Origin: an uncultured Chitinophagaceae bacterium
GTDB lineage: Bacteria > Bacteroidota > Ignavibacteria > UBA10030 > UBA8401
Assembly: GCA_964367235.1 (NCBI GenBank)
Contig: CAYIXI010000001.1
Span: 14,878-78,877, forward strand
Length of the DNA stretch: 64,000 nt
Reading direction: 5' to 3'
The notes below the pieces were generated by a model that saw only the letters and a list, made by a program, of their open reading frames with translations, was not told the origin of the DNA and made no database searches. Position 1 is the first letter of the stretch. Each line of letters starts with the position of its first letter. The translations under genes were made by a program, and so were the position numbers. This document shows positions 6,261-60,036 of this stretch, piece by piece.

Positions 6261-6954
6261 AATTGCGCTTGCCAATAATAATGGCACCGAGCATATATTA
6301 AAATTATATCAAGATTGGATTAGAAAAGACGATCGAGTGATTGAAAATATTATTTCTATGAATGATGCTGATGCATTTGAAATTTTAGAAAATATGGACG
6401 GATTGATTTTAACTGGCGGGAGTGATGTCTCTCAAGAATTTTACAAATCTGAAAAACCAAATTTAATTGGTCGTGTTGATTTAGAAAGAGATAATTTTGA
6501 AAAACGATTGCTCGATATTGCTTTTAAAAAAGAGATGCCAATACTTGGCATCTGCCGTGGAATGCAATTTGTAAATACATATTTGGGTGGTTCGTTGTAC
6601 GAAGATTTAGAAAGTTACAATTTTAAAAATCATAGAAGTTCTGATCATCAAATTAAAATTGTGGAAGATTCACTTCTATTTAATATTGCAAATCAAAATA
6701 TTGGAAATATAAACTCGCATCATCATCAAGCAGTAAGAAATTTAGCCGAGGAATTACGCGCGAGTAGTTTTTCCGATGATGGAGTTGTTGAATCGGCTGA
6801 ATGGAAAAATTACAAACAAAAACAATTTATGATTTTAGTCCAGTGGCATCCGGAAAAAATGATTGATGATTCAAATCCGATGTCAAAAAATATCAGAGAA
6901 AATTTTATTAACGCTGCAGAATTTTATTCACAAAAAATAAATAACAAGAAATGA
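6247..6954 (+). CDS. Class-I glutamine amidotransferase / peptidase C26 (gamma-glutamyl hydrolase-like)
   Basis: Catalytic triad context ILGICRGMQFVN ... HHQAV ... WHPE. Confidence 0.7.
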   Translation: MSTIKIALANNNGTEHILKLYQDWIRKDDRVIENIISMNDADAFEILENMDGLILTGGSDVSQEFYKSEKPNLIGRVDLERDNFEKRLLDIAFKKEMPILGICRGMQFVNTYLGGSLYEDLESYNFKNHRSSDHQIKIVEDSLLFNIANQNIGNINSHHHQAVRNLAEELRASSFSDDGVVESAEWKNYKQKQFMILVQWHPEKMIDDSNPMSKNIRENFINAAEFYSQKINNKK

Positions 6955-6961
6955 GGGTGGT

Positions 6962-7999
6962 ATGAAATTAATCGACTTCAAATATCCGATTCCGCGCAAT
7001 TTGATTGCAAAAAAACCTACTAATCCGCGCGACAAAGCGCGCTTATTAGTTGTAGATAGAAAAACTGAAAAAATTGAGGATTGTCTTTTTTCAGATATTT
7101 ACGATTTTTTTGAAAAAGGAGATTCGTTAATCGTAAACGAAACAAAGGTTTTTCCTGCAAGATTAATCGGACGAAAGGAAAAAACAAATGCAAAAATTGA
7201 AGTTTTAATGCTTCGCGAACTTAACAAAGAAGATAATATTTGGGATGTTATTGTTGAGCCTGCAAGAAAAGTGCGAATCGGAAATAAAATTTATTTTGGA
7301 GATGGTTCGCTTATGTGCGAGGTTATTGATAATACAACATCGCGTGGCAGAACAATGAAGTTTGAAGTTAAAGGAGATATTTTTGCCGCAGTAGAAAAAG
7401 TTGGCATCACTCCGCTTCCTCCTTACATTCGTCGCGAAGCAACTGAAAAAGATAAAAATTTATATCAAACTATTTATGCAAAAAATATTGGAGCTGTTGC
7501 CGCGCCAACTGCAGGATTGCATTTTACAAAACCTCTTTTAAATAAAATTATAAAAAAAGGAGTAAAGGTTTCGCCCGTTACACTTCACATTGGGATTGGA
7601 ACTTTTCGAAATGTTGAGGTTGAGGATTTATCAAAACATAAAATGGATTCTGAGTATTATAGCGTTCCGATGAGTTCAGTTCATGATGTAAATAAGTCAA
7701 TTGACAATAGACATAAATTATATGTAGTTGGCACAAGCACTTGTCGAGCAATTGAGTCGAGTGTTACTATTGATGGACATTTGAAATCAACTCATGGTTG
7801 GACAGATAAATTTATTTTTCAACGAAATGAATTTAAAATCACACAAAAATTAATTACAAATTTTCACATGCCAGAAACAACTTTGTTGATGCTCGTTTCA
7901 GCGTTTGGCGGCCACGATTTAATTATGAAAGCTTATAAACATGCCATCAAAAAGAAATATAGATTTTACAGTTATGGCGACGCAATGATAATTGTTTAA
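6962..7999 (+). CDS. queA: S-adenosylmethionine:tRNA ribosyltransferase-isomerase
   Basis: MKLIDFKYPIPRNLIAKKPTNPRDKARLLVV ... canonical QueA N-terminus; 345 aa. Confidence 0.9.
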   Translation: MKLIDFKYPIPRNLIAKKPTNPRDKARLLVVDRKTEKIEDCLFSDIYDFFEKGDSLIVNETKVFPARLIGRKEKTNAKIEVLMLRELNKEDNIWDVIVEPARKVRIGNKIYFGDGSLMCEVIDNTTSRGRTMKFEVKGDIFAAVEKVGITPLPPYIRREATEKDKNLYQTIYAKNIGAVAAPTAGLHFTKPLLNKIIKKGVKVSPVTLHIGIGTFRNVEVEDLSKHKMDSEYYSVPMSSVHDVNKSIDNRHKLYVVGTSTCRAIESSVTIDGHLKSTHGWTDKFIFQRNEFKITQKLITNFHMPETTLLMLVSAFGGHDLIMKAYKHAIKKKYRFYSYGDAMIIV

Positions 8000-8008
8000 A
8001 GGATTAAA

Positions 8009-9880
8009 ATGATTTCCTTAAATACTTTTGTAATAATAATATTAAATGCAATTTTAATTTTTGCATTTGCTTCAATCATAAGAAAGAAAAATTTTCTCTC
8101 TTATTTTTCTGGCGGAAGATGGTGGCTAACTTGGCTCTCGATTGCAATTATTACATTGATGGATGAATTGACATCAATATTTTATGCGCCAAGCGAAGCG
8201 TTTCGTTTCATCGGAACAAACGCAATTGTTTTTATTGCGCTGACAAGTTTGGTTGTTCGTTTCATGTCAACAAGAATGGTTGAGATTGCCGAAATTTTAG
8301 AATTGCACGGAATTCGTGGTGGCGGAGTTTATTCGTTTTCATATTTTGTGCTTGGTCCAAGAACATCATTCATCGCATTTGCCTCTATTTTAGTCACTTA
8401 TGTTTTGACTGCGTGCCTTTCGACCGTAAGTGCCGTTGAAAATGGATTTGCTTTTATGGGAATAGGTAGCGAAATAAAATTTATTATTAGTTTGGTAATT
8501 ATTTGGTTTGTTGCAGGATTAAATATTATTGGTATTAGAGAAAATGCAAAATTTACATTTGGAATATTTATAGTTGCCGCATTTATTTTAATGAATCTTT
8601 TAACTGGAGGTATTTTACAACTTGATAGTGAGAATTTATCAAAAATAAATTTAAGTGCTACACAAGTTATTGGTTCTCTCTCATCTCAAAATATGATTGA
8701 AAATTTTGGTTTTATTATTATTGGAATTTCAAGTTGTATTTTGGCTTATTCTGGTATTGAATCAGTTGTGCAAACTGCTGGGCTTGTAAAATCGTGGCAA
8801 GAAATTCGCAAAGCATATATTTTTCTCGGAATAACTGTTGGAATATTTACACCGCTAATTGCAATAGTTGTATTTTCTTCTGATATAAATGTCCTTCATC
8901 ATGAAACTGATTTAATTGCACAATTTGCAAAAATGATTGGCGGACATTGGTTTGGAGTTACTATAAGCATACTTGCAAGTTTATTATTGATGATGGCAGT
9001 TAACACGGCTTATGTAGCTTCGGGCGAATTAATTGAACGCGTTGCGCATCGTTATAACTTTAATTGGATTCTTAAAACTAATCGTCGTCAATCTCATTAT
9101 CGAATTCACATTTTAAACGGAATATTTTATTCTGTTTTAATTTTAATTACAAGTGGAAGTCAAAAAACTCTTGCAGAAATGTATGCAATCGGTTTACTTG
9201 CTTCGTTTACAATTAACCTAGGCTCACTTTTAATTTTTAGATATTTCAAAGGAACAAAAGATGTATTAGCGTATCATACATCGAGAGTTGGTACTTTGAT
9301 TATTTTTATAATTTTCTTTTCTTCATTCATCTATTTAAGTTTTACAAAACCGTACGGAATGGCAATTTGGTCGATAGCAACATTATTTTTTCTTGTTGGT
9401 GGAATTTTAATTTCAAAAACCAGATCGCCAGAGAAAAAACATATTCAACAAACCGATTCAACTTTGAAAGTTGTTTTGTATCTTTCAGAAAGAGTTGAAG
9501 AAGAAGTACATATATTTTTCAGACGACCTGATGAAACTGAAGATATTGCGATAAACTCCAATTGTGTTTATGTAAGTCTATTTTCGCCTCGCTCGGGAAT
9601 CCCGGAAAAAATCTCTGCGAACCATTTTAGGATTGCAAATAATCGCAATACTATTTTTGAAGGAATGATGGAAATGTTGTATACTTTGGATTACGAACTT
9701 ACTGACAAAAAAATTGTAGTGCATTTTGGTTGGCCACTTTCGAGTTGGATTGACAGGCTTTCTACGGGTGTTATGGTTTTCAGTATTATGAAATTGCCAA
9801 AAACTTTCCCGCGATTGAATTTTTCAATTGACTATTTTGGAATAACAAAAATTATAAATGCACAGGAAGAAAAAAAATGA
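8009..9880 (+). CDS. APC-superfamily-like permease with about 180-aa C-terminal cytoplasmic domain
   Basis: About 12 predicted TM helices over the first 450 aa, then a soluble tail; family assignment tentative. Confidence 0.4.
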   Translation: MISLNTFVIIILNAILIFAFASIIRKKNFLSYFSGGRWWLTWLSIAIITLMDELTSIFYAPSEAFRFIGTNAIVFIALTSLVVRFMSTRMVEIAEILELHGIRGGGVYSFSYFVLGPRTSFIAFASILVTYVLTACLSTVSAVENGFAFMGIGSEIKFIISLVIIWFVAGLNIIGIRENAKFTFGIFIVAAFILMNLLTGGILQLDSENLSKINLSATQVIGSLSSQNMIENFGFIIIGISSCILAYSGIESVVQTAGLVKSWQEIRKAYIFLGITVGIFTPLIAIVVFSSDINVLHHETDLIAQFAKMIGGHWFGVTISILASLLLMMAVNTAYVASGELIERVAHRYNFNWILKTNRRQSHYRIHILNGIFYSVLILITSGSQKTLAEMYAIGLLASFTINLGSLLIFRYFKGTKDVLAYHTSRVGTLIIFIIFFSSFIYLSFTKPYGMAIWSIATLFFLVGGILISKTRSPEKKHIQQTDSTLKVVLYLSERVEEEVHIFFRRPDETEDIAINSNCVYVSLFSPRSGIPEKISANHFRIANNRNTIFEGMMEMLYTLDYELTDKKIVVHFGWPLSSWIDRLSTGVMVFSIMKLPKTFPRLNFSIDYFGITKIINAQEEKK

Positions 9881-10572
9881 GTGTAAGTGTAATAATTCCT
9901 GCGGCTGGTTCGGGTACTCGTTTGGGAGGTATGATTACAAAACAATTTATTGAATTAAAAGGTAAACCAATAATAGTTTATTCAATTGAAAAATTTGAAA
10001 AATCTCCAGAAGTTTCCGAAATAATTATTGTAACACAAAGAATTTATTTTAATGAAATTCGAAATCTTTGTAATAGATATCATTTGGCAAAAGTGAAAGA
10101 AATAATTGAAGGTGGTAAAACCCGACAAGACTCAGTTAGGAATGGTCTTGAAAAAGTGAACAAAAAATCAAAATTCATTTTAGTACACGATGCAGTGCGA
10201 CCATTTATTTCTACAAATTTAATCAGCGATGCAATCTCCACTGCAAAAAAAACAAAAGCTTCAGTTGTTGCTGTTGCGGCAAAAGATACAATTAAACTTT
10301 CGAACGAAAAAAATATAATTGAAAAAACATTTCCACGAGAAAAACTTTGGATTATTCAAACGCCACAAGTTTTTGAAGCAAAACTTTTAAATCGTGCTTA
10401 TCAAAATGCTTTCAAGAAAAATATTTTAGCAACGGATGATGCATCGCTTGTTGAAGCCATTGGCGTAAACCCACAAATTGTAGTTGGTGAATATGAAAAT
10501 ATTAAAATCACGACAAGAGAAGATTTAGAAATGGCTGAATTGATTTTAAATCGTAATTCATACGCGGAGTAA
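9877..10572 (+). CDS. ispD: 2-C-methyl-D-erythritol 4-phosphate cytidylyltransferase
   Basis: VIIPAAGSGTRLGG nucleotide-binding motif; 231 aa; ATGA overlap with the upstream gene. Confidence 0.85.
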   Translation: MSVSVIIPAAGSGTRLGGMITKQFIELKGKPIIVYSIEKFEKSPEVSEIIIVTQRIYFNEIRNLCNRYHLAKVKEIIEGGKTRQDSVRNGLEKVNKKSKFILVHDAVRPFISTNLISDAISTAKKTKASVVAVAAKDTIKLSNEKNIIEKTFPREKLWIIQTPQVFEAKLLNRAYQNAFKKNILATDDASLVEAIGVNPQIVVGEYENIKITTREDLEMAELILNRNSYAE

Positions 10573-12356: not shown

Positions 12357-14534
12357 GTGATATCAACTGACTCACTTCAATTTGTAAAAGGGATTGGACC
12401 AAAACGGATTCAAGCTCTAAATTTAATTGGCATTAATTCCATATCTGATTTACTCTATTATTTTCCGTACGATTATCTGGATCGCTCAAAAATTGTTAAA
12501 ATAGAAAAACTTAAAAATTTTATAAATAAAAATGAAGAAGTAACAATTGTTGCGGAAATATTTCGACAAGAAACGCGCAGAACCAGAAATGGAAAAAAGA
12601 TTTTTATTTTGACAGTGAAAGATGAAACAGGATTTTTGCCATGTTTGTATTTTCATGGTGCGCATTGGCTCAGCAAAATGTTTAATGTTGGTGATGTTTT
12701 AGCATTATCATCTTTTGTAGAGATTGATAAATATAATCGTCCGCAATTTATTCATTCGGAGCATGATAGACTTTTTGCAATTGATGATGACGACAAAACT
12801 AATTGGAAAGAAAAATTAAATACTGGCGCAATAATTCCTAAATATCATTTAAACGAAGAATTGCGAAAAGTTGGAATTGAACAGAGGCAGTTGCGAAAAA
12901 TAATGCGTGACGCATTAAACAGATATTTAAATTCTGTTGAAGAATATTTACCTCGCGCAATTTTAAATGAACGAGCGCTTTTAAATTTACAATCTGCAAT
13001 TAGCCATCTTCACTTTCCCGATTCACTTGAAAATAAAAATCATGCACTTAAAAGAATTAAATATGACGAAAGTTTTTATTTTCAACTCTTGATTGCATTT
13101 CGCAAAAAGGAAATCGAAGAAGATAGAAATGGAATTAATTGTAAATCGAAAAATATTTTAAACAAAAAACTTTTAAGCGAACTTACTTTTAATTTAACTT
13201 CGGCACAGCAAAAAGTTATTAGTGAAATCTCTCACGACATGTCTTCAACTAAACCAATGAATCGTTTGCTTCAAGGAGATGTTGGAAGTGGAAAAACAAT
13301 TGTTTCATTTTTTGCAATGCTCAGTGCAATCGAAAATAATTTACAAGTTGCATTAATGGCACCAACCGAAATTTTAGCCGAGCAACACTTCGCAACTATA
13401 TCACACTTTGCAAAAAATTTAAATTTAAATATAAGATTGCTTGTCGGGAAGCAAAGTAAAAAACTTCGGAGTGATATTTTGGAAGATATCGGCCGAGGTT
13501 CAGCGCAAATAATTATCGGAACGCATGCGTTATTTCAAAAACATGTTGTGTTTGAAAATTTGGGACTTGTTGTAATTGATGAGCAACATCGTTTTGGAGT
13601 TTCTCAAAGAGCGCAACTTCGTGAAAAAGGAAAATCGCATCCTCATCTTTTGGTGATGACTGCAACTCCAATTCCTCGCTCGCTTGCAATGACTTTATAC
13701 GGCGATTTAGATATTTCAACAATTGATGAAATGCCAAAAAATCGTAAAAAAATTAAAACGGCAATTCGTTTTGATAAAGATAAAGTAAAAATTTATGATT
13801 TCATTCGAAAGGAAATTAGCGAGCAAAAACAAGCCTATATTGTCGTTCCGTTAATTGAGGAATCGGAAAAGGTCAATTACAAATCGGCAATTGATGAGTT
13901 TGAAAATCTCCAAAAAAATATTTTTACAGATTTAAAATTAGGATTATTGCATGGGAAATTAAGCTCCGATGAAAAAAGAATTGTGATGGAAAAATTTGCA
14001 AAAAATAAAATAAATATTTTAGTCTCCACAACAGTTATTGAAGTTGGAATTGATGTAGCGAACGCAACCGTAATGATGATTGAAGATGCTGAAAAATTTG
14101 GGCTCGCACAATTGCATCAATTGCGTGGAAGAGTTGGAAGAGGAACTGAACAATCTTATTGCATTTTAATTTCTAAGTTAGATGAAAAAATAAAAACAAC
14201 TTACTCTGAAAATAAAAAAGAAAATATCGAAAGAATTAAAATTGCAAAAAAAAGATTAGAGACAATGGTTGCGACCAATGATGGATTTAAAATTGCAGAG
14301 GTTGATTTAGAACTTCGTGGCAGTGGTGAATTATTTGGAATGCGACAAGCAGGCGAAGCAAATTTTATGATGTTAGATGTTGTGCATGACACTGAACTTT
14401 TAATTTTTGCGCGAGAAGATACTTCGGCAATTGTTCAAAGCGATCCAAATCTTTTAAGAGACGAACACAAAAAAATAAAAAATATTTTTCAAAAAAGATT
14501 CCAACATCTTCTCTCCTTCGTTCGTTCCGGATAA
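12357..14534 (+). CDS. recG: ATP-dependent DNA helicase RecG (GTG start)
   Basis: Wedge domain + helicase motifs GDVGSGKT, DEQHRFGV, TATPIPRS, QLRGRVGRG; 725 aa. Confidence 0.9.
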   Translation: MISTDSLQFVKGIGPKRIQALNLIGINSISDLLYYFPYDYLDRSKIVKIEKLKNFINKNEEVTIVAEIFRQETRRTRNGKKIFILTVKDETGFLPCLYFHGAHWLSKMFNVGDVLALSSFVEIDKYNRPQFIHSEHDRLFAIDDDDKTNWKEKLNTGAIIPKYHLNEELRKVGIEQRQLRKIMRDALNRYLNSVEEYLPRAILNERALLNLQSAISHLHFPDSLENKNHALKRIKYDESFYFQLLIAFRKKEIEEDRNGINCKSKNILNKKLLSELTFNLTSAQQKVISEISHDMSSTKPMNRLLQGDVGSGKTIVSFFAMLSAIENNLQVALMAPTEILAEQHFATISHFAKNLNLNIRLLVGKQSKKLRSDILEDIGRGSAQIIIGTHALFQKHVVFENLGLVVIDEQHRFGVSQRAQLREKGKSHPHLLVMTATPIPRSLAMTLYGDLDISTIDEMPKNRKKIKTAIRFDKDKVKIYDFIRKEISEQKQAYIVVPLIEESEKVNYKSAIDEFENLQKNIFTDLKLGLLHGKLSSDEKRIVMEKFAKNKINILVSTTVIEVGIDVANATVMMIEDAEKFGLAQLHQLRGRVGRGTEQSYCILISKLDEKIKTTYSENKKENIERIKIAKKRLETMVATNDGFKIAEVDLELRGSGELFGMRQAGEANFMMLDVVHDTELLIFAREDTSAIVQSDPNLLRDEHKKIKNIFQKRFQHLLSFVRSG

Positions 14535-14567: not shown

Positions 14568-14606
14568 TTGACAACTCGATTATAATTCTTATATTTGTAA
14601 TAAGAA
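14568..14606 (+). promoter_or_regulatory. Putative promoter (TTGACA-16-TATATT) overlapped by dyad TTCTTAT-N7-ATAAGAA, upstream of the ATP-grasp/GNAT/KamA cassette
   Basis: TTGACA at 14568-14573 and TATATT at 14590-14595; inverted repeat 14586-14592 / 14600-14606 straddles the -10 and +1 region. Confidence 0.35.
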
Positions 14607-14660
14607 AATGAAATTATTCTATCACAATATGAAAGGTATCGAGCAGTTTATAAATACTGC

Positions 14661-15737
14661 ATGCAAGTTGCACTCCTCTACAACCTGAAGAAAGAAAATT
14701 CTGAATTAAACGGAGCTAATTCAGAAACTTCAAGTCAAAAAACTTTTCAATCCTTAGAAACTCCACAAGAGACTCTCACGCGTATTGATACCTACGCAGA
14801 GTGGGATACTATTGAAACTATAAACGCACTTCGCGATGCCTTGGCAATTCGTCATGATGTTACTTTAATCGAAGCAGATGAATTTGCATTTGAAAAACTT
14901 CGTCTCTTAAAACCTGAAATTGTTTTTAATGTTACTGAAGGAAAATACGGCGCATCGCGTGAAGCACAAATTCCAGCAATGCTTGAAATGTTAGAAATTC
15001 CATACACGGGAAGCGACCCAGTTACTCTTGGAATTTGTTTGGACAAATCTCGCGCAAAAGAAATTCTCTCGTACTATAATATTGCAAATCCAAAATTTAA
15101 AGTTATCAAAGATTTAGAGGAAGAAATTCCAAACGATTTTAGTTTCCCATTAATAGTAAAACCTCTTTTTGAGGGCTCAAGTAAAGGGATTTTTAACAAA
15201 TCGGTTGTTGAAAATATGAACGAATTAACTGAAATCGTAAAAGAAATAATTTCGGAATACAAAGAGCCAGCGTTGATTGAAGAATTTCTTCCGGGAAGAG
15301 AATTTACTGTTGCGATTTTAGGAAATAAAGATAGAGCAAGAATTTTACCAATCGTTGAAATTAAATTTGATGCTTTGCCAAAAGATGTCAAACCAATTTA
15401 TTCGTACGAAGCAAAATGGATTTGGGACCAATCCGAATTTCCACATGATATTTATGAATGTCCCGCGCAAGTTTCAAATGAGCTGAATCAAAAAATAAAA
15501 AACATTTGTTTGAGTACTTATCATACACTTGGTTGCAGAGATTGGGCGAGAGTTGATGTAAGACTTGATGCAAGTGGTGAACCACAAATAATTGAAATTA
15601 ATCCACTTCCAGGAATTTTACCAAAGGCTGAAGATAATTCTTGTTATCCACGAGCGGCGAGAATCGCTGGCTATACTTATAATGAAATGATTAACGCTGT
15701 GCTTGACGAAGCATGTTTGAGAAACGGACTACTATGA
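14661..15737 (+). CDS. D-Ala-D-Ala-ligase-family ATP-grasp ligase, paralog 1
   Basis: Ddl-like three-domain layout; ATP-grasp motifs (PLIVKP ... GSSKGI ... EEFLPGREFTV ... RVDVRLD ... IEINPLPG). Confidence 0.7.
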   Translation: MQVALLYNLKKENSELNGANSETSSQKTFQSLETPQETLTRIDTYAEWDTIETINALRDALAIRHDVTLIEADEFAFEKLRLLKPEIVFNVTEGKYGASREAQIPAMLEMLEIPYTGSDPVTLGICLDKSRAKEILSYYNIANPKFKVIKDLEEEIPNDFSFPLIVKPLFEGSSKGIFNKSVVENMNELTEIVKEIISEYKEPALIEEFLPGREFTVAILGNKDRARILPIVEIKFDALPKDVKPIYSYEAKWIWDQSEFPHDIYECPAQVSNELNQKIKNICLSTYHTLGCRDWARVDVRLDASGEPQIIEINPLPGILPKAEDNSCYPRAARIAGYTYNEMINAVLDEACLRNGLL

Positions 15738-27772: not shown

Positions 27773-27806
27773 TCTGCCTCTGGCAGATTAATCCGCCAGA
27801 GGCAGA
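27773..27806 (+). terminator. Hairpin terminator between convergent OMP gene and rpoN
   Basis: Perfect 12-bp stem TCTGCCTCTGGC / GCCAGAGGCAGA, 10-nt loop, then TTTATATTTTT. Confidence 0.65.
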
Positions 27807-39249: not shown

Positions 39250-41364
39250 ATGAGCAATATTAATGCTTTTAAAGAGTACAGCACTTCTCAAATCCGCAAT
39301 ATAGCTTTAATCGGTCACGGTGGTTCAGGCAAAACAAGTTTTAGCGAAGCAGTTTTATTTTCAACAGACAAAACTACTCGGCAAGGTACAATTCAAGAGG
39401 GGAATACAATCAGCGATTATCATCCCGATGAGATTGAACGAAAAATTTCAATCAACACTTCGCTTTTAGTAACTGAATTGGAAAATGCAAAAATAAATAT
39501 TTTTGATACACCCGGTTACAACGATTTTACTGGCGAAGTAAAGTCATCACTTTTTGTTGCCGATACTGCGCTACTTTTTATAAAAGCATTTGAGGGAATT
39601 GAAGTTGGTACTGAAATCGTTTGGGAATATGTGAAAGAATTTTATCTTCCCGCATTATTTTTAATTTCAAAAATTGATCACGACAATGCTGAGTACGAAA
39701 ATGTTTTAAAATCGATTAAAGAAAAACTTACAAATGACGCGACAATTATAACTTTTCCAGTAAACTCTGGGCATGGATTTGATGCTGTGGTTGATGTTGT
39801 AAAAATGAAAATGCTAAAATTTATTCCGCACAAAAACGGAAAATATATTGAAGAGGAAATTCCTGCAGAATTTATTGAAAAAGCAAAAGCGCTTCACGAG
39901 GAGTTGATTGAAAAAATTGCAGAGAGTGACGAAGTAATGTTGAATAAATTTTTTGAACATGGCACTTTGCACGACGATGAAATTACTGTTGGAATGCGAG
40001 ATGCGATGGAGCATAGAAAACTTTATCCTGTTTTTGCAGTTTCATCAACTTCAAATGTTGGCGCATTAAATATTGCAGAGTTTGTTGCGCGATATTCTCC
40101 TGCGCCGAACGAACGACCAGCAGTAAAAGCAATTGATGCAAATACAAAAAAAGAAGTTGAAGTTAAAATTGATGACAAAAAAGAGACTTCACTTTATATT
40201 TTTAAAACAGTTAGCGAAGCGCATGTTGGCGAATTATCTTTCTTTAAAGTTTTTACCGGAATGGCTCTTCACGGACAAGATTTAATGAACGAGGCAAATG
40301 GAAAACCAGAACGACTCGGTCAGATATTTATCATGAATGGAAAAGAGAGATTTGAAATGGCTAAAATCCATTCAGGCGATATTGGAACAGTTGTAAAATT
40401 AAAAGATTCTCACACAACAAATACGCTCTCTTCAAAATCGTACCCAATTATTTTTTCTAAAATCCCTTTTCCCGCTCCAGTAATTAGTTTAGCAATTCAT
40501 CCAAAAGCAAAAGGAGAAGAAGATAAAGTTGGACAAGGCTTGCATGTTTTGCACGAGGAAGATCCGACTTTTGAATTTAAAATTGATAACGAAACACACG
40601 AAACAGTAATTAGCGGACAAGGTGAATTACATTTAGAAATTGTTGTGCGAAGATTAAAACAAAAATTTGGTGTTGATGTTGAAATCAGCGAACCAAAAAT
40701 TGCGTATCGCGAAACTATCAAAAGTAAAACGCTTGACTCCGAATACAAACATAAAAAACAATCTGGCGGTCGCGGGCAATTTGGTCATGTGCATTTAAAA
40801 ATCGAACCAAACGAACGGGGAAAAGGTTTTGAGTTTATCAACGAAATTGTTGGCGGAGTTGTGCCGGGAAGATTTATCCCCGCAGTTGAAAAAGGTTTGG
40901 TCGATACAATTTCGCAAGGAATAATTGCTGGCTTTAAAGTTGTCGATGTAAAAGTAACTTTGTTTGATGGCTCGTTTCACGATGTTGACTCTGACGAAAT
41001 CTCTTTTAAAATAGCAGGTTCGCAGGCTTTCAGAAAAGGATTTAAAGAAGCGCGACCAATTTTGCTTGAACCGATTTACATAATTGAAGTGATTGTTCCA
41101 GACGAATATATGGGCGAGGTGATGGGAGATATTTCCAGCAGACGAGGAAAAATTTTAGGAATGGAATCCGATGGCTCGCACCAAATTATTAAAGGACAAG
41201 TTGCGTTAAAGGATTTGTATCGATACTCAACAACACTTCGCTCGATGTCGCAGGGAAGAGGAATACATAAACAAAAATTTTCTCATTACGAAGAAGTGCC
41301 AAGAGAGATTGCAGAAAAAATTGTTGCTGAATACGAAAAACTTAGACAAGAAGAACATAATTAA
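39250..41364 (+). CDS. EF-G-family translational GTPase paralog with degenerate G motifs
   Basis: Five-domain EF-G layout (704 aa). G1 GHGGSGKT; G3 is DTPGY rather than DTPGH; G4 is SKID rather than NKxD. Confidence 0.75.
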   Translation: MSNINAFKEYSTSQIRNIALIGHGGSGKTSFSEAVLFSTDKTTRQGTIQEGNTISDYHPDEIERKISINTSLLVTELENAKINIFDTPGYNDFTGEVKSSLFVADTALLFIKAFEGIEVGTEIVWEYVKEFYLPALFLISKIDHDNAEYENVLKSIKEKLTNDATIITFPVNSGHGFDAVVDVVKMKMLKFIPHKNGKYIEEEIPAEFIEKAKALHEELIEKIAESDEVMLNKFFEHGTLHDDEITVGMRDAMEHRKLYPVFAVSSTSNVGALNIAEFVARYSPAPNERPAVKAIDANTKKEVEVKIDDKKETSLYIFKTVSEAHVGELSFFKVFTGMALHGQDLMNEANGKPERLGQIFIMNGKERFEMAKIHSGDIGTVVKLKDSHTTNTLSSKSYPIIFSKIPFPAPVISLAIHPKAKGEEDKVGQGLHVLHEEDPTFEFKIDNETHETVISGQGELHLEIVVRRLKQKFGVDVEISEPKIAYRETIKSKTLDSEYKHKKQSGGRGQFGHVHLKIEPNERGKGFEFINEIVGGVVPGRFIPAVEKGLVDTISQGIIAGFKVVDVKVTLFDGSFHDVDSDEISFKIAGSQAFRKGFKEARPILLEPIYIIEVIVPDEYMGEVMGDISSRRGKILGMESDGSHQIIKGQVALKDLYRYSTTLRSMSQGRGIHKQKFSHYEEVPREIAEKIVAEYEKLRQEEHN

Positions 41365-41370
41365 AAAAAG

Positions 41371-41410
41371 TAAGAATACTTCTCGCGATTTTTCGTGAGA
41401 AGTATTCTTA
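41371..41410. terminator. Bidirectional 17-bp hairpin terminator between convergent EF-G-like and cytochrome-porin genes
   Basis: TAAGAATACTTCTCGCG-N6-CGTGAGAAGTATTCTTA; U-runs on both strands. Confidence 0.7.
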
Positions 41411-41416
41411 AATGTT

Positions 41417-42538
41417 TTAAATAAAGAAGTGAAAAACTAATTGATATTCATTGTTTTCGATTTGAGTTGTTGGCTCTAAATTAATTCTATAAAGATTTAA
41501 AATTTCTACACCGCTTACCGGATAAACGCTAAAGCCAATTGAATGGCGAGTATATTTAATTTCCTTTGCGCCACCATGTAAAATATTACTTGGAGATAAT
41601 TGAATTTCTGAAGAGATGTGGTCTTCCATAGTTTTAGTTTCAAAAGAATATCTTAAATCAAATCCGGTTGTAACTTGATAATGCATTGAAAGATTATTTA
41701 TATCTTTAAAGTCGTCAAAAAATCCGAGATTAGTTTTTAAATTTACAAATTCATACATCAAAGTAAAATTTTTATCAATCGTAAATCCACCGAAATAATT
41801 TTTTACAATTCTTTTATTTGCAAATTCAGGCATAAGATAATACGAGCCACCCAACATAAAATTTAAAAATGAAAAAGAATTTTGATATTCAGTTCTTAAA
41901 ATTACGGCTTTAGATTTTTTCGGAGGAAAACCCAATCCGCCGGGATTGCCATTGAAAATACCAGCAGTGATTAAAAAATCATCAGGCGCAAAACCAATTT
42001 CCAAACCTGCATCTTCGCTTCTTTCACCAAAACCAATTTCGCTTCGTGTCCAAGTATTGTGGTCATCAGTTTTAATTCCAAAAGATGGAGTGAATTGACC
42101 AACTTTCAAAAATCCTTTTGCAGGTAAATTTTTTGCAAGCGCAAATAATTCAAAACCATCGCGCAATCCTTTATCAAAATATAAACGAACAACTTTATTA
42201 ATTTTTAAATCAAAATATAAATCGCCTTGCATTTGAAAAAATTGTGATTTTTTATTTTCAGAATTTTGATAAAATAAAGTACGAGCATCAAAACCAATCG
42301 TAAAAAAATCGTTTAATTTCGGGGTGAATTCTTCGAATTCAGTTTCAGCGCGAAACATTTGCAAGGGCAATTCATCCTGCGAAAACGAAACGCCGAAAGA
42401 ATTCCGCATTCCTTTTCCGGTGGGATTGATGTGGCACGATTGGCACGATGCGCCCGAACGAAGCGAAAAAAGTGGAAGCGCAAAAAGAGAATTTGAATTT
42501 AAAACAATTAATAGTGCAAAAATAATTTTTCGATTCAT
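41417..42538 (-). CDS. Secreted monoheme CXXCH + beta-barrel protein (Cyc2-like fused cytochrome-porin candidate)
   Basis: Signal peptide MNRKIIFALLIVLNSNSLFA, then CQSCH 13 residues into the mature protein. About 340 aa of alternating-hydrophobic beta-strand-like sequence ending in aromatic ...HFFI. Confidence 0.45.
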   Translation of the reverse strand: MNRKIIFALLIVLNSNSLFALPLFSLRSGASCQSCHINPTGKGMRNSFGVSFSQDELPLQMFRAETEFEEFTPKLNDFFTIGFDARTLFYQNSENKKSQFFQMQGDLYFDLKINKVVRLYFDKGLRDGFELFALAKNLPAKGFLKVGQFTPSFGIKTDDHNTWTRSEIGFGERSEDAGLEIGFAPDDFLITAGIFNGNPGGLGFPPKKSKAVILRTEYQNSFSFLNFMLGGSYYLMPEFANKRIVKNYFGGFTIDKNFTLMYEFVNLKTNLGFFDDFKDINNLSMHYQVTTGFDLRYSFETKTMEDHISSEIQLSPSNILHGGAKEIKYTRHSIGFSVYPVSGVEILNLYRINLEPTTQIENNEYQLVFHFFI

Positions 42539-45045: not shown

Positions 45046-45473
45046 AAATTCTTGTAATTCATGGACCAAATTTAAATCTTTTAGGCTCGCGCGAAACTGA
45101 AATTTATGGAACGCAAACTTTAAATAATCTTTGTGATGATATTATAAAAAATAATCCGAAGCATGAATTAACTTTTTTTCAATCCAATCACGAAGGTGAT
45201 ATTATAGATAGATTGCATTTAGCGATGAATGATGGAATAAAAGGAATAATAATTAATGCAGGTGCGTTCACACATTATTCTTACGCAATTCGTGATGCGA
45301 TTTCTTCAATTAAAATTCCAACTGTCGAAGTACATTTATCAAACATTCACTCACGCGAAGAATTTAGAAAAATTTCTGTTTTGCAAGATGTGTGCATTTC
45401 ACAAATATCTGGTTTGGGGATTGAAGGATATTATTTAGCAATAAATATTTTATCAGAAAAAGAAAATGATTAA
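45042..45473 (+). CDS. aroQ: 3-dehydroquinate dehydratase, type II
   Basis: MKILVIHGPNLNLLGSRETEIYG ... HLSNIHSRE canonical AroQ motifs. Confidence 0.9.
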   Translation: MKILVIHGPNLNLLGSRETEIYGTQTLNNLCDDIIKNNPKHELTFFQSNHEGDIIDRLHLAMNDGIKGIIINAGAFTHYSYAIRDAISSIKIPTVEVHLSNIHSREEFRKISVLQDVCISQISGLGIEGYYLAINILSEKEND

Positions 45474-46149
45474 GGCAGTTGTTTTTGATTTGGATAATAC
45501 GCTTGTAGATTTTATGGCGATGAAGCGAAAATCTATTGATGCGGCAATAATTGCAATGCGTGATGCAGGATTAAAATTAAGTTATGAAGAAATAAATAAA
45601 CGAATTGATTCGATTTACAAAGAAAAGGGAATTGAATTTCAAAATGTTTTTGATGAATTACTCTTCAATCATTTTCAAAAAATAGATTTTAAAATTCTTT
45701 CATCTGGAATAATTGCATATCGTCGTGCAAGAGAAGCCGCGCTTGTACCGTATCAACATGTTTATCTTACTTTAATTGAATTACTAAAAATGGGATTGCA
45801 ACTTGCAGTTGTTACCGATGCGCCTTCGCGTGAAGCTTGGCTTCGTTTATCATATTTAAATTTGATTCATATTTTTCATCATGTTGTAACTTTTGAAGAT
45901 ACTGGAAAACGAAAACCAGATCCTGCTCCATTTAAACGAGCGTTGAAACTTTTAAAAGTTAAAGGCAAAGAAGCAATTATGATTGGTGATTGGGCTGAAC
46001 GAGACATGATTGGCGCCGCAAAAGTCGGAATGAAAACTTGCTTTGCCAGATATGGTGATACTTTTGGAACAATCGAATCGCATGCCAATTACGAAGTGAA
46101 TGATGTTTTCGATTTAATTAAAATCATAAAAAAAGAAAATAAAAAATGA
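45466..46149 (+). CDS. HAD-IA family hydrolase (phosphoglycolate phosphatase-like)
   Basis: VVFDLDNTLVDF motif I, IGDWAERDMIGA motif IV. Confidence 0.7.
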   Translation: MIKAVVFDLDNTLVDFMAMKRKSIDAAIIAMRDAGLKLSYEEINKRIDSIYKEKGIEFQNVFDELLFNHFQKIDFKILSSGIIAYRRAREAALVPYQHVYLTLIELLKMGLQLAVVTDAPSREAWLRLSYLNLIHIFHHVVTFEDTGKRKPDPAPFKRALKLLKVKGKEAIMIGDWAERDMIGAAKVGMKTCFARYGDTFGTIESHANYEVNDVFDLIKIIKKENKK

Positions 46150-46517
46150 TAAAAGGAATTGGTGTTGATATAATTGAAATTGATAGAATCAAAGTTTCGA
46201 TTGAAACTTACGGCAAATCTTTTATTGATAAATTTTTTACTGCAAACGAAATTGAATATTGCTCAAAGAAAGCAAATCCATTTCAACATTTTGCCGCCAG
46301 GTTTGCCGCAAAAGAGGCTGTAAGTAAAGCACTTTCTACAGGTTGGAGTGGCGAATTTAGATGGCACGATTTTGAAGTTACAAACGACAAACTTGGCAAG
46401 CCGTATTTTACAATTTACGGCGCATTAAAATTAAGTTTAGAAAATTGCAATATTCAACTTTCTCTTTCGCACTCCGATAAAACAGTTGTTGCTTTTGTAG
46501 TGATTGAAGAAAAATAA
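46146..46517 (+). CDS. acpS: Holo-[acyl-carrier-protein] synthase
   Basis: MIKGIGVDIIEIDRI ... FAAKEAVSKAL ... SLSHSD motifs; 123 aa. Confidence 0.85.
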   Translation: MIKGIGVDIIEIDRIKVSIETYGKSFIDKFFTANEIEYCSKKANPFQHFAARFAAKEAVSKALSTGWSGEFRWHDFEVTNDKLGKPYFTIYGALKLSLENCNIQLSLSHSDKTVVAFVVIEEK

Positions 46518-46526
46518 ATAAAAAAA

Positions 46527-47672
46527 TTACTTTTTCATTTTTTTAAATATGATATTTTTCTTCTTCAATCCATTAATCATAAATTTAAAACAATTCTCAT
46601 TCGCCCCAATAAATTCCGGTGGGGAAATACCTTTTTGAGTATACAATTCATTTGCAATTAATCGTGCCGCAACAGAACATGTATATCCCGTGGTTCTCGC
46701 CATTGAAGTAATATTATTTATTTTATCAAAACGGTCAAGCATATCGTATTGATAACGAACATGTTTTTTATTTTCTATTCCTTCAACAATAACCTGCAGT
46801 ACAGTTATATCCTCTTCTCCCTCATTTAATTTCCATTTTGGAAATAAAAGTTTTGCAGTTACATCAATCGGACGAATTTTATTCCCATTTACAGTAATTT
46901 CTTTTTTACTGAACAATTCTATTTCATGAAATAATTTCATTTTCTCTGCATGGCCAGGATATCTTAAAGTTTTCTCTTTCATATTTTTTGCATTGATTGT
47001 TTTCATCAATGATCGTAAACCATCGCTGTTGAAAGATTCAAGCATTCCGATTTTTGGAAACTTATGTACTTCAATTTCAGAAAGAGCTTTTTTTACAACT
47101 ATCTTTCCATTTTTAACTATTCGCGCAGGACGAGTATATTCTTCGATAACATCAATAGGAGAAAATACAATTTTATATTCAAATGGGAGTTCGCGTAAAA
47201 CTGGAAGCCCACCTACATAACATTCAATATTTATCAATTCATCCATCTTCGCTTGATGATAACCTATAATTAAATTAGTGCAACCAGGCGCAACTCCACA
47301 ATCAACAATGGCTGTTACATTATTTTTCTTTGCAAGTTTATTAAGTTTGAAAGCATTTTCAGGAAAAAAAGAGATATCGACAATATTTTTTTTTGCCTCA
47401 ATAACCGACTTGAGCATATTGAAACCAAGAAATCCCGGAACAGCACCAATTATCAAATCAAAATCAGCAACAATTTTTTTTATTGTTGAAGCATTTGACA
47501 AGTCAGCCTTAATTCCTTTCAAGAAAAATTTTTTCCAAAGGAATCGAAGTCGTTTGTTCGAAACATCTGCAATTGTGACATCAAAATCTTTTTGCAAATC
47601 ACAAGCGACAACACTACCTATAAAACCTCCACCGAGAACGAGAATTTTTTTCATATTGCGTTGATAATACAA
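46527..47672 (-). CDS. Saccharopine-dehydrogenase-family NAD(P)-binding oxidoreductase
   Basis: N-terminal Rossmann KILVLGGGFIGS; 381 aa; resembles the Sacchrp_dh / carboxynorspermidine dehydrogenase family. Confidence 0.5.
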   Translation of the reverse strand: MYYQRNMKKILVLGGGFIGSVVACDLQKDFDVTIADVSNKRLRFLWKKFFLKGIKADLSNASTIKKIVADFDLIIGAVPGFLGFNMLKSVIEAKKNIVDISFFPENAFKLNKLAKKNNVTAIVDCGVAPGCTNLIIGYHQAKMDELINIECYVGGLPVLRELPFEYKIVFSPIDVIEEYTRPARIVKNGKIVVKKALSEIEVHKFPKIGMLESFNSDGLRSLMKTINAKNMKEKTLRYPGHAEKMKLFHEIELFSKKEITVNGNKIRPIDVTAKLLFPKWKLNEGEEDITVLQVIVEGIENKKHVRYQYDMLDRFDKINNITSMARTTGYTCSVAARLIANELYTQKGISPPEFIGANENCFKFMINGLKKKNIIFKKMKK

Positions 47673-47739
47673 ATTTTTTTGATGGAAATGGCCATTGCTT
47701 AATTTTAAAGTACTAATGGCATTTATTATTTCAAATGTT

Positions 47740-47781
47740 GATAAAACAGTTGTTGCTTTTGTAATTATAGAAGAAAAATAA
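47740..47781 (+). repeat. 42-nt near-copy of the 3' end of acpS (last 13 codons + stop)
   Basis: GATAAAACAGTTGTTGCTTTTGTAATTATAGAAGAAAAATAA vs 46476-46517 GATAAAACAGTTGTTGCTTTTGTAGTGATTGAAGAAAAATAA (3-4 mismatches). Confidence 0.7.
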
Positions 47782-47818
47782 TTTCTATTTTAAGAACCTA
47801 CTTAAATTTACCAATTAT

Positions 47819-47961
47819 TTATTTTTTATGAAAATGTTCTACAATAACCTCTTTAACTAATTGTACATCATCGGTAATCAGTCCATCGATATTTAATTTT
47901 AATAATCGCTCAACATCTTTTTTTGAAGTGATGCCATAAACATAAACTGCAATTTTATTTT
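47819..47961 (-). pseudogene. Relic 3' end (last 45 codons + stop) of a glycerophosphodiester phosphodiesterase paralog
   Basis: 134 nt (47828-47961) about 88% identical to 49129-49262, the 3' end of the intact GDPD gene. Translates to IAVYVYGITSKKDVERLLKLNIDGLITDDVQLVKEVIVEHFHKK*. Confidence 0.7.
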
Positions 47962-49043
47962 ACCAACATCATCTTACCTGTTTTTACATTCTTATTATTT
48001 AGCAATCTGTAAAAATATGAACCACTTGGTAAATTCTCTGCTTCAAAATTAATTGAATGTTTTCCTCTTTTTTGTTTTTCATCGACCAAATTTGCAACTT
48101 CTTTTCCAAGTATATTAAATACTTTTAAAGAGACTTTTGAATCCTCATTTAATTCGTAAGAAATTTTTGTTTGAGGATTAAATGGATTTGGAAAATTTTG
48201 ATGTAAAAGAAAACTTTTCGCATTGTTGATATTTGAGAAGTTGACATTTGTCGAAGTTTCATTGGACAATTTTTCGATGTAATAAGTATAAACTTTTCCT
48301 GAATCATTTATCCATGACCGTGTTGGTTCTGCTAATAAAAACATCCCATTTTTTGTAAAAAATTCTATTCTACTTCTTTTATCTATATAAGTTTCAGTTG
48401 GAGTAATAACACTATCAATCATTATTGAATAAACTCTTAAACATGGATAGGAGTTTTGACCAATCTTAATTGTTCCGAATGCATCACATTTTGATGTGCT
48501 ATACTTTGTAAATCTATATCCATTACCTGGATCATCAGATACAATATTATATTCAGTATGAGTAAAACCTAATGCTAACGGTAGTTTATAAAATAATAAT
48601 TGATTTTCTATTTTTCCTTCATAACTACTCTCATTATTTTCGAGATTCTCAAATAAATAAAACCGACCTATTAATTTTACACCCTCAGGTTGAAAGTCTA
48701 AATAAATCTCTGCAAATATTGAATTTGAATCTTCAGTAAAAAAATTTGTTTTAGCAACTACTTTAGCATCAAGATAAAAAGAATTTGCAAAACCAGTGGA
48801 AGGATTATCCAATTGATATTTAATTGAGTCATTAAATATTAAAGATGGCATAACCCAGTTTTGGGAAACCGTATTTGATGGATATCCAATATCAAACTAA
48901 ATTGAATCTTCATTGTAAACATAATCATTTAATGACTTACCAACTTCAAACAATTTTTTCATATCATCAAGAGTAACAGTAATTTGGGCTTTTAATGGGA
49001 TGAAAAAAAGGAAATAGATTATTGAAAAATAAATTTTACTCAT
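47955..49043 (-). pseudogene. T9SS C-terminal-sorting-domain cargo protein interrupted by a single in-frame TAG
   Basis: Start ATG 49043-49041 with GGAGG SD and signal peptide MSKIYFSIIYFLFFIPLKAQ. Same frame as the track ORF 47955-48851, separated only by TAG at 48897-48899. The C-terminus ...LPSGSYFYRLLNNKNVKTGKMMLVK is a T9SS type-A CTD. Confidence 0.55.
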
Positions 49044-49116: not shown

Positions 49117-49911
49117 TCAACTTTTGAGATGTAAATGTTCATTAATAACATCCTTTACTAATTGAACATCGTCGGCAATTAATCCATCGATATTTAATTT
49201 TAATAACCGCTCAACATCTTTTTTTGATGTAATGCCATAAACATAAACTGCAATTTTATTTTGATGAGCATTTTGCACAACATCAAAATTTATTTGATGT
49301 TTATTGCAAATAAAAATTTCTGCATTTACTTTTTTTGCAAGTCTGCTTGGAGAGTTACGAAAATCTTTAAGCGAATTAAATAAAACTCCAATTGTAATTG
49401 TTGGATTGAGTTTTTTGATTTGTGTAATTATTTTGTGATTGAAAGAAGAGACACAAATAAATTTATTTTTAGAAAATCCATCAAGTGATTTTAATAATAA
49501 TTCAGCCATCGAATTATTTTTAAATTTAACATCTGGTTTAATTTCTATATTAAGAAAAATTTTTGGCGATGCAATCCTTAAAAGATCATTGAGGTGAGGA
49601 ATTTTTTCATTCGAAAAAGATTTATCAAACCAACTTCCACAATCAAGCTGAGTTAATAAATTGCTACTTAACTCATAAACATCTTCATTTGTCCCGACAG
49701 TGCGTTTTAAATTATTATCATGGATTACTACAAACTCATCGTTGGAAGTTAATTGAATATCAAACTCAATCATATTTGCGCCAAACTCGATTGCTTTTTT
49801 AAACGAGGCAATTGTATTTTCTGGTGCTATTTTCGAAAATCCACGATGACCAATTACAAGCGGAGGTTTGTTAAAAAAAGATGGAGCAAATTTTTCAAAT
49901 GGAATTCCCAT
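49117..49911 (-). CDS. Glycerophosphodiester phosphodiesterase
   Basis: VIGHRGFSKIAPENTIASFKKAIEFGANMIEFDIQLTSNDEFVVIHD GDPD catalytic motifs; 264 aa. Confidence 0.8.
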   Translation of the reverse strand: MGIPFEKFAPSFFNKPPLVIGHRGFSKIAPENTIASFKKAIEFGANMIEFDIQLTSNDEFVVIHDNNLKRTVGTNEDVYELSSNLLTQLDCGSWFDKSFSNEKIPHLNDLLRIASPKIFLNIEIKPDVKFKNNSMAELLLKSLDGFSKNKFICVSSFNHKIITQIKKLNPTITIGVLFNSLKDFRNSPSRLAKKVNAEIFICNKHQINFDVVQNAHQNKIAVYVYGITSKKDVERLLKLNIDGLIADDVQLVKDVINEHLHLKS

Positions 49912-50544
49912 TTATTTTAATAAATCAAAAATTCGTTTTGCAACTTCATCGACATTTCCAAAGCCGTCAACATTTTTTAATACATTCAAACTTGAGTAAA
50001 AGTTTTTCAGTGGCTCGGTATTAGATTTATAAATTTCAAGTCTCTTGCGAACAGTTTCTGGTTTATCATCAATGCGTTGATAAATTTCTCCACTACACGA
50101 AATACATTTATTATTTTTTAGCATTTGAGAATTAAAAACTTTTCCACAATCCCTACAAATAAATCTATCGCTCAATCTTTTTACAATTTCATTTTCATCA
50201 AGATCAATATTAATAACCAAAGGATGCTGAATTTTTAAATCAACAAAAAGAGATTTTAAAGCATCGGCTTGCGCAACAGTTCGCGGGAAACCATCTAAAA
50301 TAAAGCCGTTTGCGCATTTTTCGTTTGACAAAACTTCCCTCACCATTTCAATCATCACGCTATCGGGAACTAAATTTCCGGCATCCATAAATTTTTTCGC
50401 TTCCAAACCAAGAGGAGTTTCGTTTTTAATTGCTACGCGCAAAATATCGCCAGTTGAAATATGTGCGAGATTAAATTTTGAAATTAAAAATTGCGCTTGC
50501 GTTCCTTTGCCAACTCCCGGTGCGCCAAATAAAATTATATTCAT
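49912..50544 (-). CDS. adk: Adenylate kinase
   Basis: MNIILFGAPGVGKGTQA P-loop, zinc-lid CRDCGKVF ... CISCSGE; the stop abuts the GDPD ATG (TAAATG). Confidence 0.9.
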   Translation of the reverse strand: MNIILFGAPGVGKGTQAQFLISKFNLAHISTGDILRVAIKNETPLGLEAKKFMDAGNLVPDSVMIEMVREVLSNEKCANGFILDGFPRTVAQADALKSLFVDLKIQHPLVINIDLDENEIVKRLSDRFICRDCGKVFNSQMLKNNKCISCSGEIYQRIDDKPETVRKRLEIYKSNTEPLKNFYSSLNVLKNVDGFGNVDEVAKRIFDLLK

Positions 50545-59288: not shown

Positions 59289-59312
59289 ATTTAGAATTTA
59301 GTAAAATAAAAA

Positions 59313-59337
59313 AGTCCACTTAAGTGGACTTTTTTAT
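59313..59337 (+). terminator. Rho-independent terminator after rpsT
   Basis: Palindrome AGTCCACTTAAGTGGACT followed by TTTTTT; overlaps the stop of the convergent TPR gene. Confidence 0.65.
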
Positions 59338-60036
59338 TTGAGATTTCAACTCTTCGATTTCAGTTAACCGCTTTAAAAATTTATCCTTTTCGGTTGGCAA
59401 GATTTCGCTTAACTTTTGGTAAAGTGAGATAGCTTCGTCAAATTGATTTTGTTCTACAAATATTTCTGCTAAAGTTGGAGTTAAAAATAATTCCTCGTTG
59501 TTTTCGGGTTCGTAAATATTCTGCTCGGTTTGATTTTCATCTACAACAATTCTTTGAGCTCGTGAGAGTTCAGTTACAAATTTATCTAACTCAAAAGTAC
59601 TCTCTTTTAATTTTAAATATTGCTCGAAAGTTAAAATATCACTTTTTTTGTAATTGGTAATATTTTTTTGGGCGTATTGCTCAAAAGTAAGAAATGAGTT
59701 TTCATTTTCTAATATTTCAATAACTTCATTTAATGCAGTCCGAAATTTTTGATTGAAAGGAGATAAATCGCATGCGCTTTGAAAAGCAGATTTAGATTTC
59801 TGGATTTCATTTATATTTTTAAAACACTCGCCAAGAATAAAAAATGAAATTGCATAATTAGGAAATAATTTTGTTCCGCCCTCAAGTAGCGAAATTGCTT
59901 TTGCGTTTTCACCGCGAGAAATAAGCTCTTTTGCATAAATTGCAAATAAACTCGAACGAGGATTATTTTTTAACGCCTCAGATAAAAAAGAAAAATTAAG
60001 TGTGTTATCCATAAAAAAAGCCGACGAAATATTCAT
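59320..60036 (-). CDS. TPR-repeat protein
   Basis: TPR-like helical repeats. The first ATG lies inside the upstream terminator hairpin, so the true start may be the in-frame ATG at 60012 (MDNTLNF...). Confidence 0.45.
   Translation of the reverse strand: MNISSAFFMDNTLNFSFLSEALKNNPRSSLFAIYAKELISRGENAKAISLLEGGTKLFPNYAISFFILGECFKNINEIQKSKSAFQSACDLSPFNQKFRTALNEVIEILENENSFLTFEQYAQKNITNYKKSDILTFEQYLKLKESTFELDKFVTELSRAQRIVVDENQTEQNIYEPENNEELFLTPTLAEIFVEQNQFDEAISLYQKLSEILPTEKDKFLKRLTEIEELKSQIKKST

Follow-up and report, generated by a model that had tools for sequence, protein, structure and literature searches.

In Escherichia coli, prophage e14 and phage 21 integrate at icd with an insert that carries a replacement 3' end for the gene, and the displaced gene end is left at the attachment site. 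Homology-facilitated illegitimate recombination, in which one joint is a homologous anchor and the other is illegitimate, is represented among the cases cited in PMC5361080 by Acinetobacter, S. pneumoniae and P. stutzeri. In E. coli conjugation, most integrations with one-sided homology were single crossovers of re-circularised molecules, which duplicated 109-950 bp of the anchor (PMC3240628). One-sided homologous recombination has also been proposed for the Vibrio T6SS and Rhs loci, where it would account for stranded 3' ends and orphan immunity genes (PMC5361080). In the 'C-terminal displacement' of the Vibrio cholerae T6SS and Rhs loci, a 3' end is pushed downstream when a new module joins the conserved 5' part of the gene; these are polymorphic-toxin systems, which undergo displacement repeatedly and benefit from the immunity genes that they retain.

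The locus described here, located in a 64-kb stretch of DNA (the window, meaning the whole stretch that was analysed), is another example of this known type of event. It centers on a 222-nt block holding displaced 3' ends of acpS and GDPD, which we interpret, with a probability of about 0.6, as a non-functional scar of recombination between two haplotypes, with a homologous exchange in a flanking core gene at one end and an illegitimate joint at the other. As in homology-facilitated illegitimate or single-crossover integration, the new genes lie beside a conserved gene, and each event would have one joint in a homologous anchor and one illegitimate joint. The anchors duplicated in E. coli measured 109-950 bp, whereas the repeats here measure 42 nt and about 143 nt, with a 7-nt microhomology at one joint; in addition, our reading comes from the sequence of an uncultivated organism, and its two back-to-back scars keep the entire former junction. 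The stranded ends resemble those of the T6SS and Rhs loci, but the genes concerned are the housekeeping acpS and GDPD, the arrangement occurs in one species only (0 of 18 relatives with inserts), and nothing useful has apparently been retained. The likeness to e14 and phage 21 lies in the restored and displaced ends, which form direct repeats around an insert and differ mainly synonymously; unlike at icd, there are no recombinase or mobile genes, the inserts are single genes, and no reuse with duplications is seen in relatives. The locus points to neither a new mechanism nor a new function. It is a clean natural record of a gene-order change in uncultivated bacteria: two later arrivals enclose the entire former junction, one of the joints is known to the base, and the population data show that recombination of the same diverged allele continues in the living gene. 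It could serve as a teaching example and as a marker of recombination between groundwater lineages.

At the left of the locus, a HAD hydrolase gene (45466-46149, + strand) is followed by the intact acpS gene (46146-46517, + strand), an open reading frame for a holo-ACP synthase of 123 aa that matches Pfam PF01648 (E = 4e-21). A sacDH-family gene (46527-47654, - strand; Pfam PF16653/PF03435) faces acpS, with its stop 9 nt from the acpS stop, and encodes 375 aa from the ATG at 47654, with an alternative TTG start at 47672. Its 85-nt upstream region (47655-47739, - strand) ends where similarity to acpS begins abruptly at 47740. The 222-nt block comes next and consists of three parts: the fossil acpS end (47740-47781, + strand), which holds the last 13 codons (DKTVVAFVIIEEK) and the stop codon; the 37-nt spacer of the old convergent junction (47782-47818); and the fossil GDPD end (47819-47961, - strand), which holds the last 46 codons (NKIAVYVYGITSKKDVERLLKLNIDGLITDDVQLVKEVIVEHFHKK) and its own TAA. 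Beyond the block lies a T9SS cargo gene (47955-49043, - strand) of 362 codons, identified from its open reading frames, with a signal-peptide-like N-terminus and a C-terminal Por_Secre_tail (Pfam PF18962). The intact GDPD gene (49117-49911, - strand; 264 aa, Pfam PF03009) and adk (49912-50544, - strand) complete the locus. Gene order thus bears out the statement of an earlier sequence-only reading that the intact acpS and GDPD genes are now separated by the sacDH gene and the T9SS cargo gene. Base composition gave no sign of a foreign origin, with G+C contents of 27-33% in six genes at and near the locus and 32% in the window.

Comparison of the window with itself returned the GDPD and acpS repeats as the first and third matches (E = 1.3e-43 and 5.9e-10), with no other gene-end copies in the 64 kb. 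In the acpS repeat, the last 42 nt of the intact gene (46476-46517, + strand) pair with 47740-47781 at 39 of 42 positions (93%), with a 24-nt exact seed, and the fossil differs from the working gene only at 47764, 47766, and 47769. In the GDPD repeat, positions 49129-49262 (- strand) within the intact gene pair with 47828-47961 at 119 of 134 positions (88.8%) without a gap. The 42-nt and 134-nt copies, the latter at about 88% identity, had been described from the sequence alone, and both stand as highly significant repeats. The fossil acpS stop is at 47779-47781 and the fossil GDPD stop is the TAA at 47819-47821, so that the two stops are 37 nt apart, as that description also held. The GDPD fossil shows an in-frame one-codon length difference in its tail. 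Similarity to acpS ends exactly at the stop codon, similarity to GDPD fades across the last few codons, and the spacer past both fossil stops is unrelated to the sequence 3' of either intact gene. Such an end of homology at, or within a few codons of, both stops is expected if the two haplotypes differ 3' of each gene.

We considered whether the arrangement could be a chimera of two strain haplotypes created during assembly. Two features might favor such an artefact: the two copies of a repeat can be identical for as many as 31 nt, and a Logan contig, which is k-mer-based and spans sacDH and both fossils, ends at 47960, which is the repeat edge. However, contigs encoding the identical GDPD protein in several groundwater assemblies were 99.9-100% identical to the window over 45-51 kb with no length change, and strain L006, which is 99.72% identical over 20.8 kb, had the same structure. 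The structure was also found in two indel-rich low-coverage contigs and in a 429-kb contig, also rich in indels, that may be a long-read assembly to judge by its name and its errors. Among the contigs read from the neighboring HAD protein, the gene order was the same in 23 of 23. Altogether, at least 23 contigs from several independent samples and assemblies, and from several assemblers, agree in their coordinates and differ by SNPs only; no common k-mer could have joined the sacDH upstream region to the acpS fragment. Because at least 23 independently assembled contigs, including the presumed long-read one, share the structure, it is not an assembly artefact, a possibility that we regard as practically negligible. 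The arrangement is present in all contigs of this species that were examined.

To place the block in its genomic context, we carried out a profile search of species-representative genomes, which returned 80 loci. Relatives with 38-57% GDPD identity conserve the rlmN-adk-GDPD and acpS-HAD-DHQ flanks, which face each other. The distance between the stop codons of GDPD and acpS is highly variable, from 11 nt up to 7 kb. Five genomes (L017, L020, L021, L028, and L030) have a live direct GDPD/acpS junction with a spacer of 11-32 nt, and the interval in the remaining relatives is about 240 nt to 7 kb. These live junctions support the proposal, made from the sequence alone, that the block reproduces a convergent acpS/GDPD junction. 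Matches to the T9SS tail occur within the interval in at least 11 relatives. In L007, the closest relative with a long contig, the order is GDPD, a 755-aa T9SS protein, a 231-aa protein, a 356-aa T9SS protein, and acpS; the 755-aa gene also follows GDPD in L093. The 362-codon T9SS gene of the window aligns over its full length with the 356-aa protein of L007, which adjoins acpS, at 31% identity (E = 1.6e-35). Within L007, the C-terminal sorting domains of the two T9SS genes (12837-13095 and 14604-14861) are 70% identical in DNA, which suggests local duplication or exchange.

The sacDH gene is foreign to this position: both flanking genes were located in 23 relatives, none of which has sacDH in the GDPD-acpS interval, and the closest homologues of sacDH, which are 76-79% identical, do not adjoin acpS and lie in a neighborhood composed of QueF, a HARE-HTH gene, and sacDH. 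Absence from the interval in relatives, together with the presence of homologues elsewhere, identifies sacDH as the newcomer at this locus on comparative grounds, and T9SS cargo appears as the long-standing occupant of the interval; the comparison with related genomes that the sequence-only reading called for thus gives an answer to which of the two genes is new. The 85-nt upstream region presumably arrived with sacDH, and it showed no alignable similarity to the upstream regions of sacDH in relatives. Within it, positions 47686-47727 form an imperfect inverted repeat (AATGCCATT and AATGGCCATT). In two of the relatives, L009 (about 9925-9960) and L011 (about 9940-9975), a common hairpin-containing motif (GAAGTTCCCGAAACAAGTTCGGGATGACGTA) lies directly upstream of sacDH and may be a regulatory element; this motif is absent from the window. 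In L011 and L012, genes for an IS200-type Y1 transposase, a restriction-modification specificity subunit, and Bro-N lie between the HARE-HTH gene and sacDH (6549-9885), and these insertions show that the native sacDH neighborhood is itself unstable.

Analysis of the substitutions in the GDPD fragment indicated how it had diverged. The 15 differences from the working gene comprise nine synonymous and six non-synonymous changes; in the first 36 codons, which belong to the conserved domain, nine are synonymous and one is non-synonymous. The remaining non-synonymous changes, like the one-codon length difference, fall in the C-terminal tail, which is also variable among orthologues. By the Nei-Gojobori method, pS was 0.34, pN was 0.053, and pN/pS was 0.155 (Fisher P = 1.3e-4 against neutrality), a pattern of purifying selection. 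We then simulated decay by letting the fragment mutate freely while the working gene took only synonymous changes, and four or fewer changed amino acids were obtained in 0.1% of the runs (P = 0.001). The frame and the stop codon are kept, with no frameshift or premature stop over 46 AT-rich codons. A low pN/pS together with the kept frame and stop indicates that the fragment diverged while it was part of a working GDPD gene, and divergence inside a working gene identifies it as an allele of another lineage rather than a decayed local copy. The fragment thus passed most of its divergence time in the working GDPD gene of another lineage.

These results bear directly on another history, in which both gene ends, or a larger segment that was later trimmed, were duplicated within the genome and then decayed neutrally. 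This history accounts for the direct repeats that flank each inserted gene. The acpS copy would also suit it: there are just three changes, two of the three being G-to-A or G-to-T, as fits drift in an AT-rich genome, and the 'VII' of the fossil is a derived state compared with the 'VVI' of most relatives. For the GDPD fragment, however, neutral decay is already disfavored by the substitution pattern, the intact reading frame, and the simulation, and living GDPD genes in this population include an allele with a similar degree of divergence. We therefore consider duplication followed by decay improbable. The earlier proposal of segmental duplication with partial decay is not borne out; its recognition of a fossil junction holds, given the live junctions in five relatives, but recombination between two lineages replaces duplication as the likely origin.

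The population data show that a diverged GDPD allele is segregating. Between strains that are 99.7% identical over 20.8 kb, and otherwise about 0.2% apart, 160 nt of GDPD (49303-49462) contain 14 SNPs, corresponding to about 9% divergence and a pS of 0.26. One mosaic patch covers 49207-49231 and another 49303-49462; additional variable sites extend to 49860, and more occur at 50034-50169. All four combinations of the two GDPD blocks are present, which means that recombination has shuffled them, and the pS of the patch resembles the divergence between the fossil and the gene, which points to a diverged allele recombining at GDPD. In the haplotypes L003 and L096, the working gene has the bases of the fossil at 49207, 49228, and 49231, and in L096 these three fossil-type sites adjoin the divergent patch. 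The fossil-type SNPs could reflect gene conversion by the fossil or import of a fossil-type allele. When GDPD, acpS, and the T9SS gene were clustered at 90% identity, every cluster member came from this one species, so the other lineage is not in that collection.

The joint between the T9SS gene and the GDPD fossil could be resolved to the base. The T9SS protein ends in KMMLVK, and related T9SS tails end in KMNLLK and KMILIK; this resemblance indicates that the T9SS stop is native. The heptamer AAAATAA (47955-47961, - strand) is common to the end of the T9SS gene (GTA AAA TAA) and to the GDPD sequence (C AAA ATA AAA TTG), and it forms the first 7 nt of the GDPD similarity. Because the T9SS gene keeps its native C-terminus, the 7 nt that it has in common with GDPD constitute a microhomology joint, as expected of an illegitimate joint with short microhomology. 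The T9SS stop codon (47955-47957) lies inside this heptamer, in agreement with the earlier observation that it sits at the fossil boundary. At the other joint, between 47739 and 47740, there is a sharp breakpoint against the acpS fragment. The T9SS gene itself contains an in-frame TAG at 48897-48899 (- strand), at codon 49, which splits the signal-peptide-like N-terminus from the rest. Strain L006 has CAG at this codon and an intact gene for 362 aa; in the protein collection, the truncated form occurs on 13 contigs and the intact form on four. These counts suggest that most of the population carries the T9SS cargo gene as a pseudogene, probably of recent origin.

Under the reading that we favor, haplotype P would have had a direct convergent junction in which GDPD, ending in ITDDVQLVKEVIVEHFHKK and a stop, was separated by the 37-nt spacer from acpS, ending in VIIEEK and a stop, and the 222-nt block would be its remnant. 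Haplotype Q, roughly 10% diverged, would have carried cargo beside each flanking gene, namely the T9SS gene after GDPD and sacDH after acpS, and the P remnant would now sit between Q sequences. The most likely route would consist of two homology-anchored recombination events. In both, one end of the incoming DNA, either a linear fragment or a re-circularised fragment entering by a single crossover, would have recombined homologously within the conserved GDPD or acpS gene, and the other end would have been joined illegitimately, with AAAATAA probably serving as the 7-nt microhomology at the T9SS/GDPD joint. Each event would have brought in one flanking gene in full, while the 3' end that it displaced, from the copy of the other haplotype, would have been stranded beyond the new gene.

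Several observations bear on this scheme. The homologous anchor is consistent with the conservation of the flanks in relatives, with the mostly synonymous divergence between the working and fossil GDPD ends, and with the mosaic patches of about 9% divergence in GDPD; the origin of the fragment in the orthologous locus implies that the event was guided by homology to the flanks. As for the parental arrangements, the direct junction and T9SS cargo downstream of GDPD each occur in relatives, though not at about 90% identity to this genome. In three scans of public collections, neither P nor Q was found as a living genome; a scan of the genome collection with the single GDPD protein returned no relative, the same scan of the JGI metagenomes returned none, and an exact-DNA scan of metagenomes for the 37-nt fossil spacer gave no match. 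Gene order with sacDH next to acpS, which a donor on the acpS side requires, was seen in none of the relatives examined. The acpS repeat, with three differences in 42 nt, could equally be a duplication that was identical when it was made at insertion.

Two rare events at one locus are not a parsimonious history, and a single complex event is possible. In this alternative, the polymerase path during break repair or replication restart would have switched template twice between paired haplotypes: it would have followed Q to the end of the T9SS stop codon, moved to P by way of the microhomology to copy the GDPD fossil, the spacer, and the acpS fossil, and returned to Q 85 nt upstream of sacDH. 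A single event of this kind explains why the fossils are adjacent, why the orthologous locus is their source, and why the sequence on both sides of the 222 nt appears to be one haplotype throughout; the microhomology at the left joint also agrees with it, and so does the comparable divergence of the acpS ends (7%) and the GDPD ends (11%), as fits one pair of haplotypes. It nevertheless presupposes a Q haplotype in which sacDH and the T9SS gene are direct neighbors, and none was observed; the template switching itself is conjectural. We consider a single event unlikely, although it is a plausible variant of the two-event route.

The fragments showed no evidence of a present function in the sequence features that we searched. 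No terminator-like hairpin was found in the fossil, its predicted fold was no better than that of shuffled sequence (z = -0.05), and it had no Rfam match; a functional RNA or terminator was dropped as a candidate. The three changes in the acpS fossil (47764, 47766, and 47769) share one hexamer, 47764-47769, and give a perfect TATAAT on the - strand facing sacDH. This hexamer is about 110 nt upstream of the sacDH ATG, and a TTAAAA lies 18 nt upstream of it. It may reflect chance or promoter recruitment; TATAAT-like hexamers are common at 32% G+C, and a scan found no excess of promoter-like sites.

An integrated element that repairs the gene into which it inserts would produce exactly the geometry of this locus. 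This raises the possibility that small elements integrated site-specifically at the 3' ends of acpS and GDPD and duplicated their attachment sites as the repeats seen here, with the recombinase lost or acting in trans. The direct repeats include the gene 3' ends and flank the inserts, the restored and displaced ends differ mostly synonymously, and the interval varies widely among relatives, all of which would suit such elements. Against this, Pfam searches of the called genes in the 10 kb to either side found nothing for mobility, whether integrase, transposase, or another family, and each supposed element would be a single housekeeping-type or cargo gene of 1.2-1.3 kb. Moreover, blastn and tblastn searches of 18 relatives with inserts detected no duplicated GDPD or acpS ends, while the window, used as a positive control, was detected, and what joins the T9SS gene to the fossil is a 7-nt microhomology at the stop codon of that gene rather than a common core site. 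We judge site-specific integration decidedly improbable, and recombination between haplotypes P and Q remains our preferred reading. A more elaborate version, which is a long shot, would make the GDPD/acpS junction throughout this bacterial group a dedicated landing site for single-gene cassettes (such as T9SS cargo genes and sacDH) that bring a replacement 3' end and use a recombinase encoded elsewhere; in a milder variant, the acpS fragment would have been recruited as a sacDH promoter. The lack of an integrase, insertion sequence, or nearby tRNA, already remarked upon in the sequence-only reading, is borne out, and the only tRNA of the window is located at 57.6 kb. Elsewhere, the window contains a perfect 36-nt palindrome at 59304-59339 and two imperfect palindromes of 34 nt (27773-27806) and 66 nt (41358-41423).
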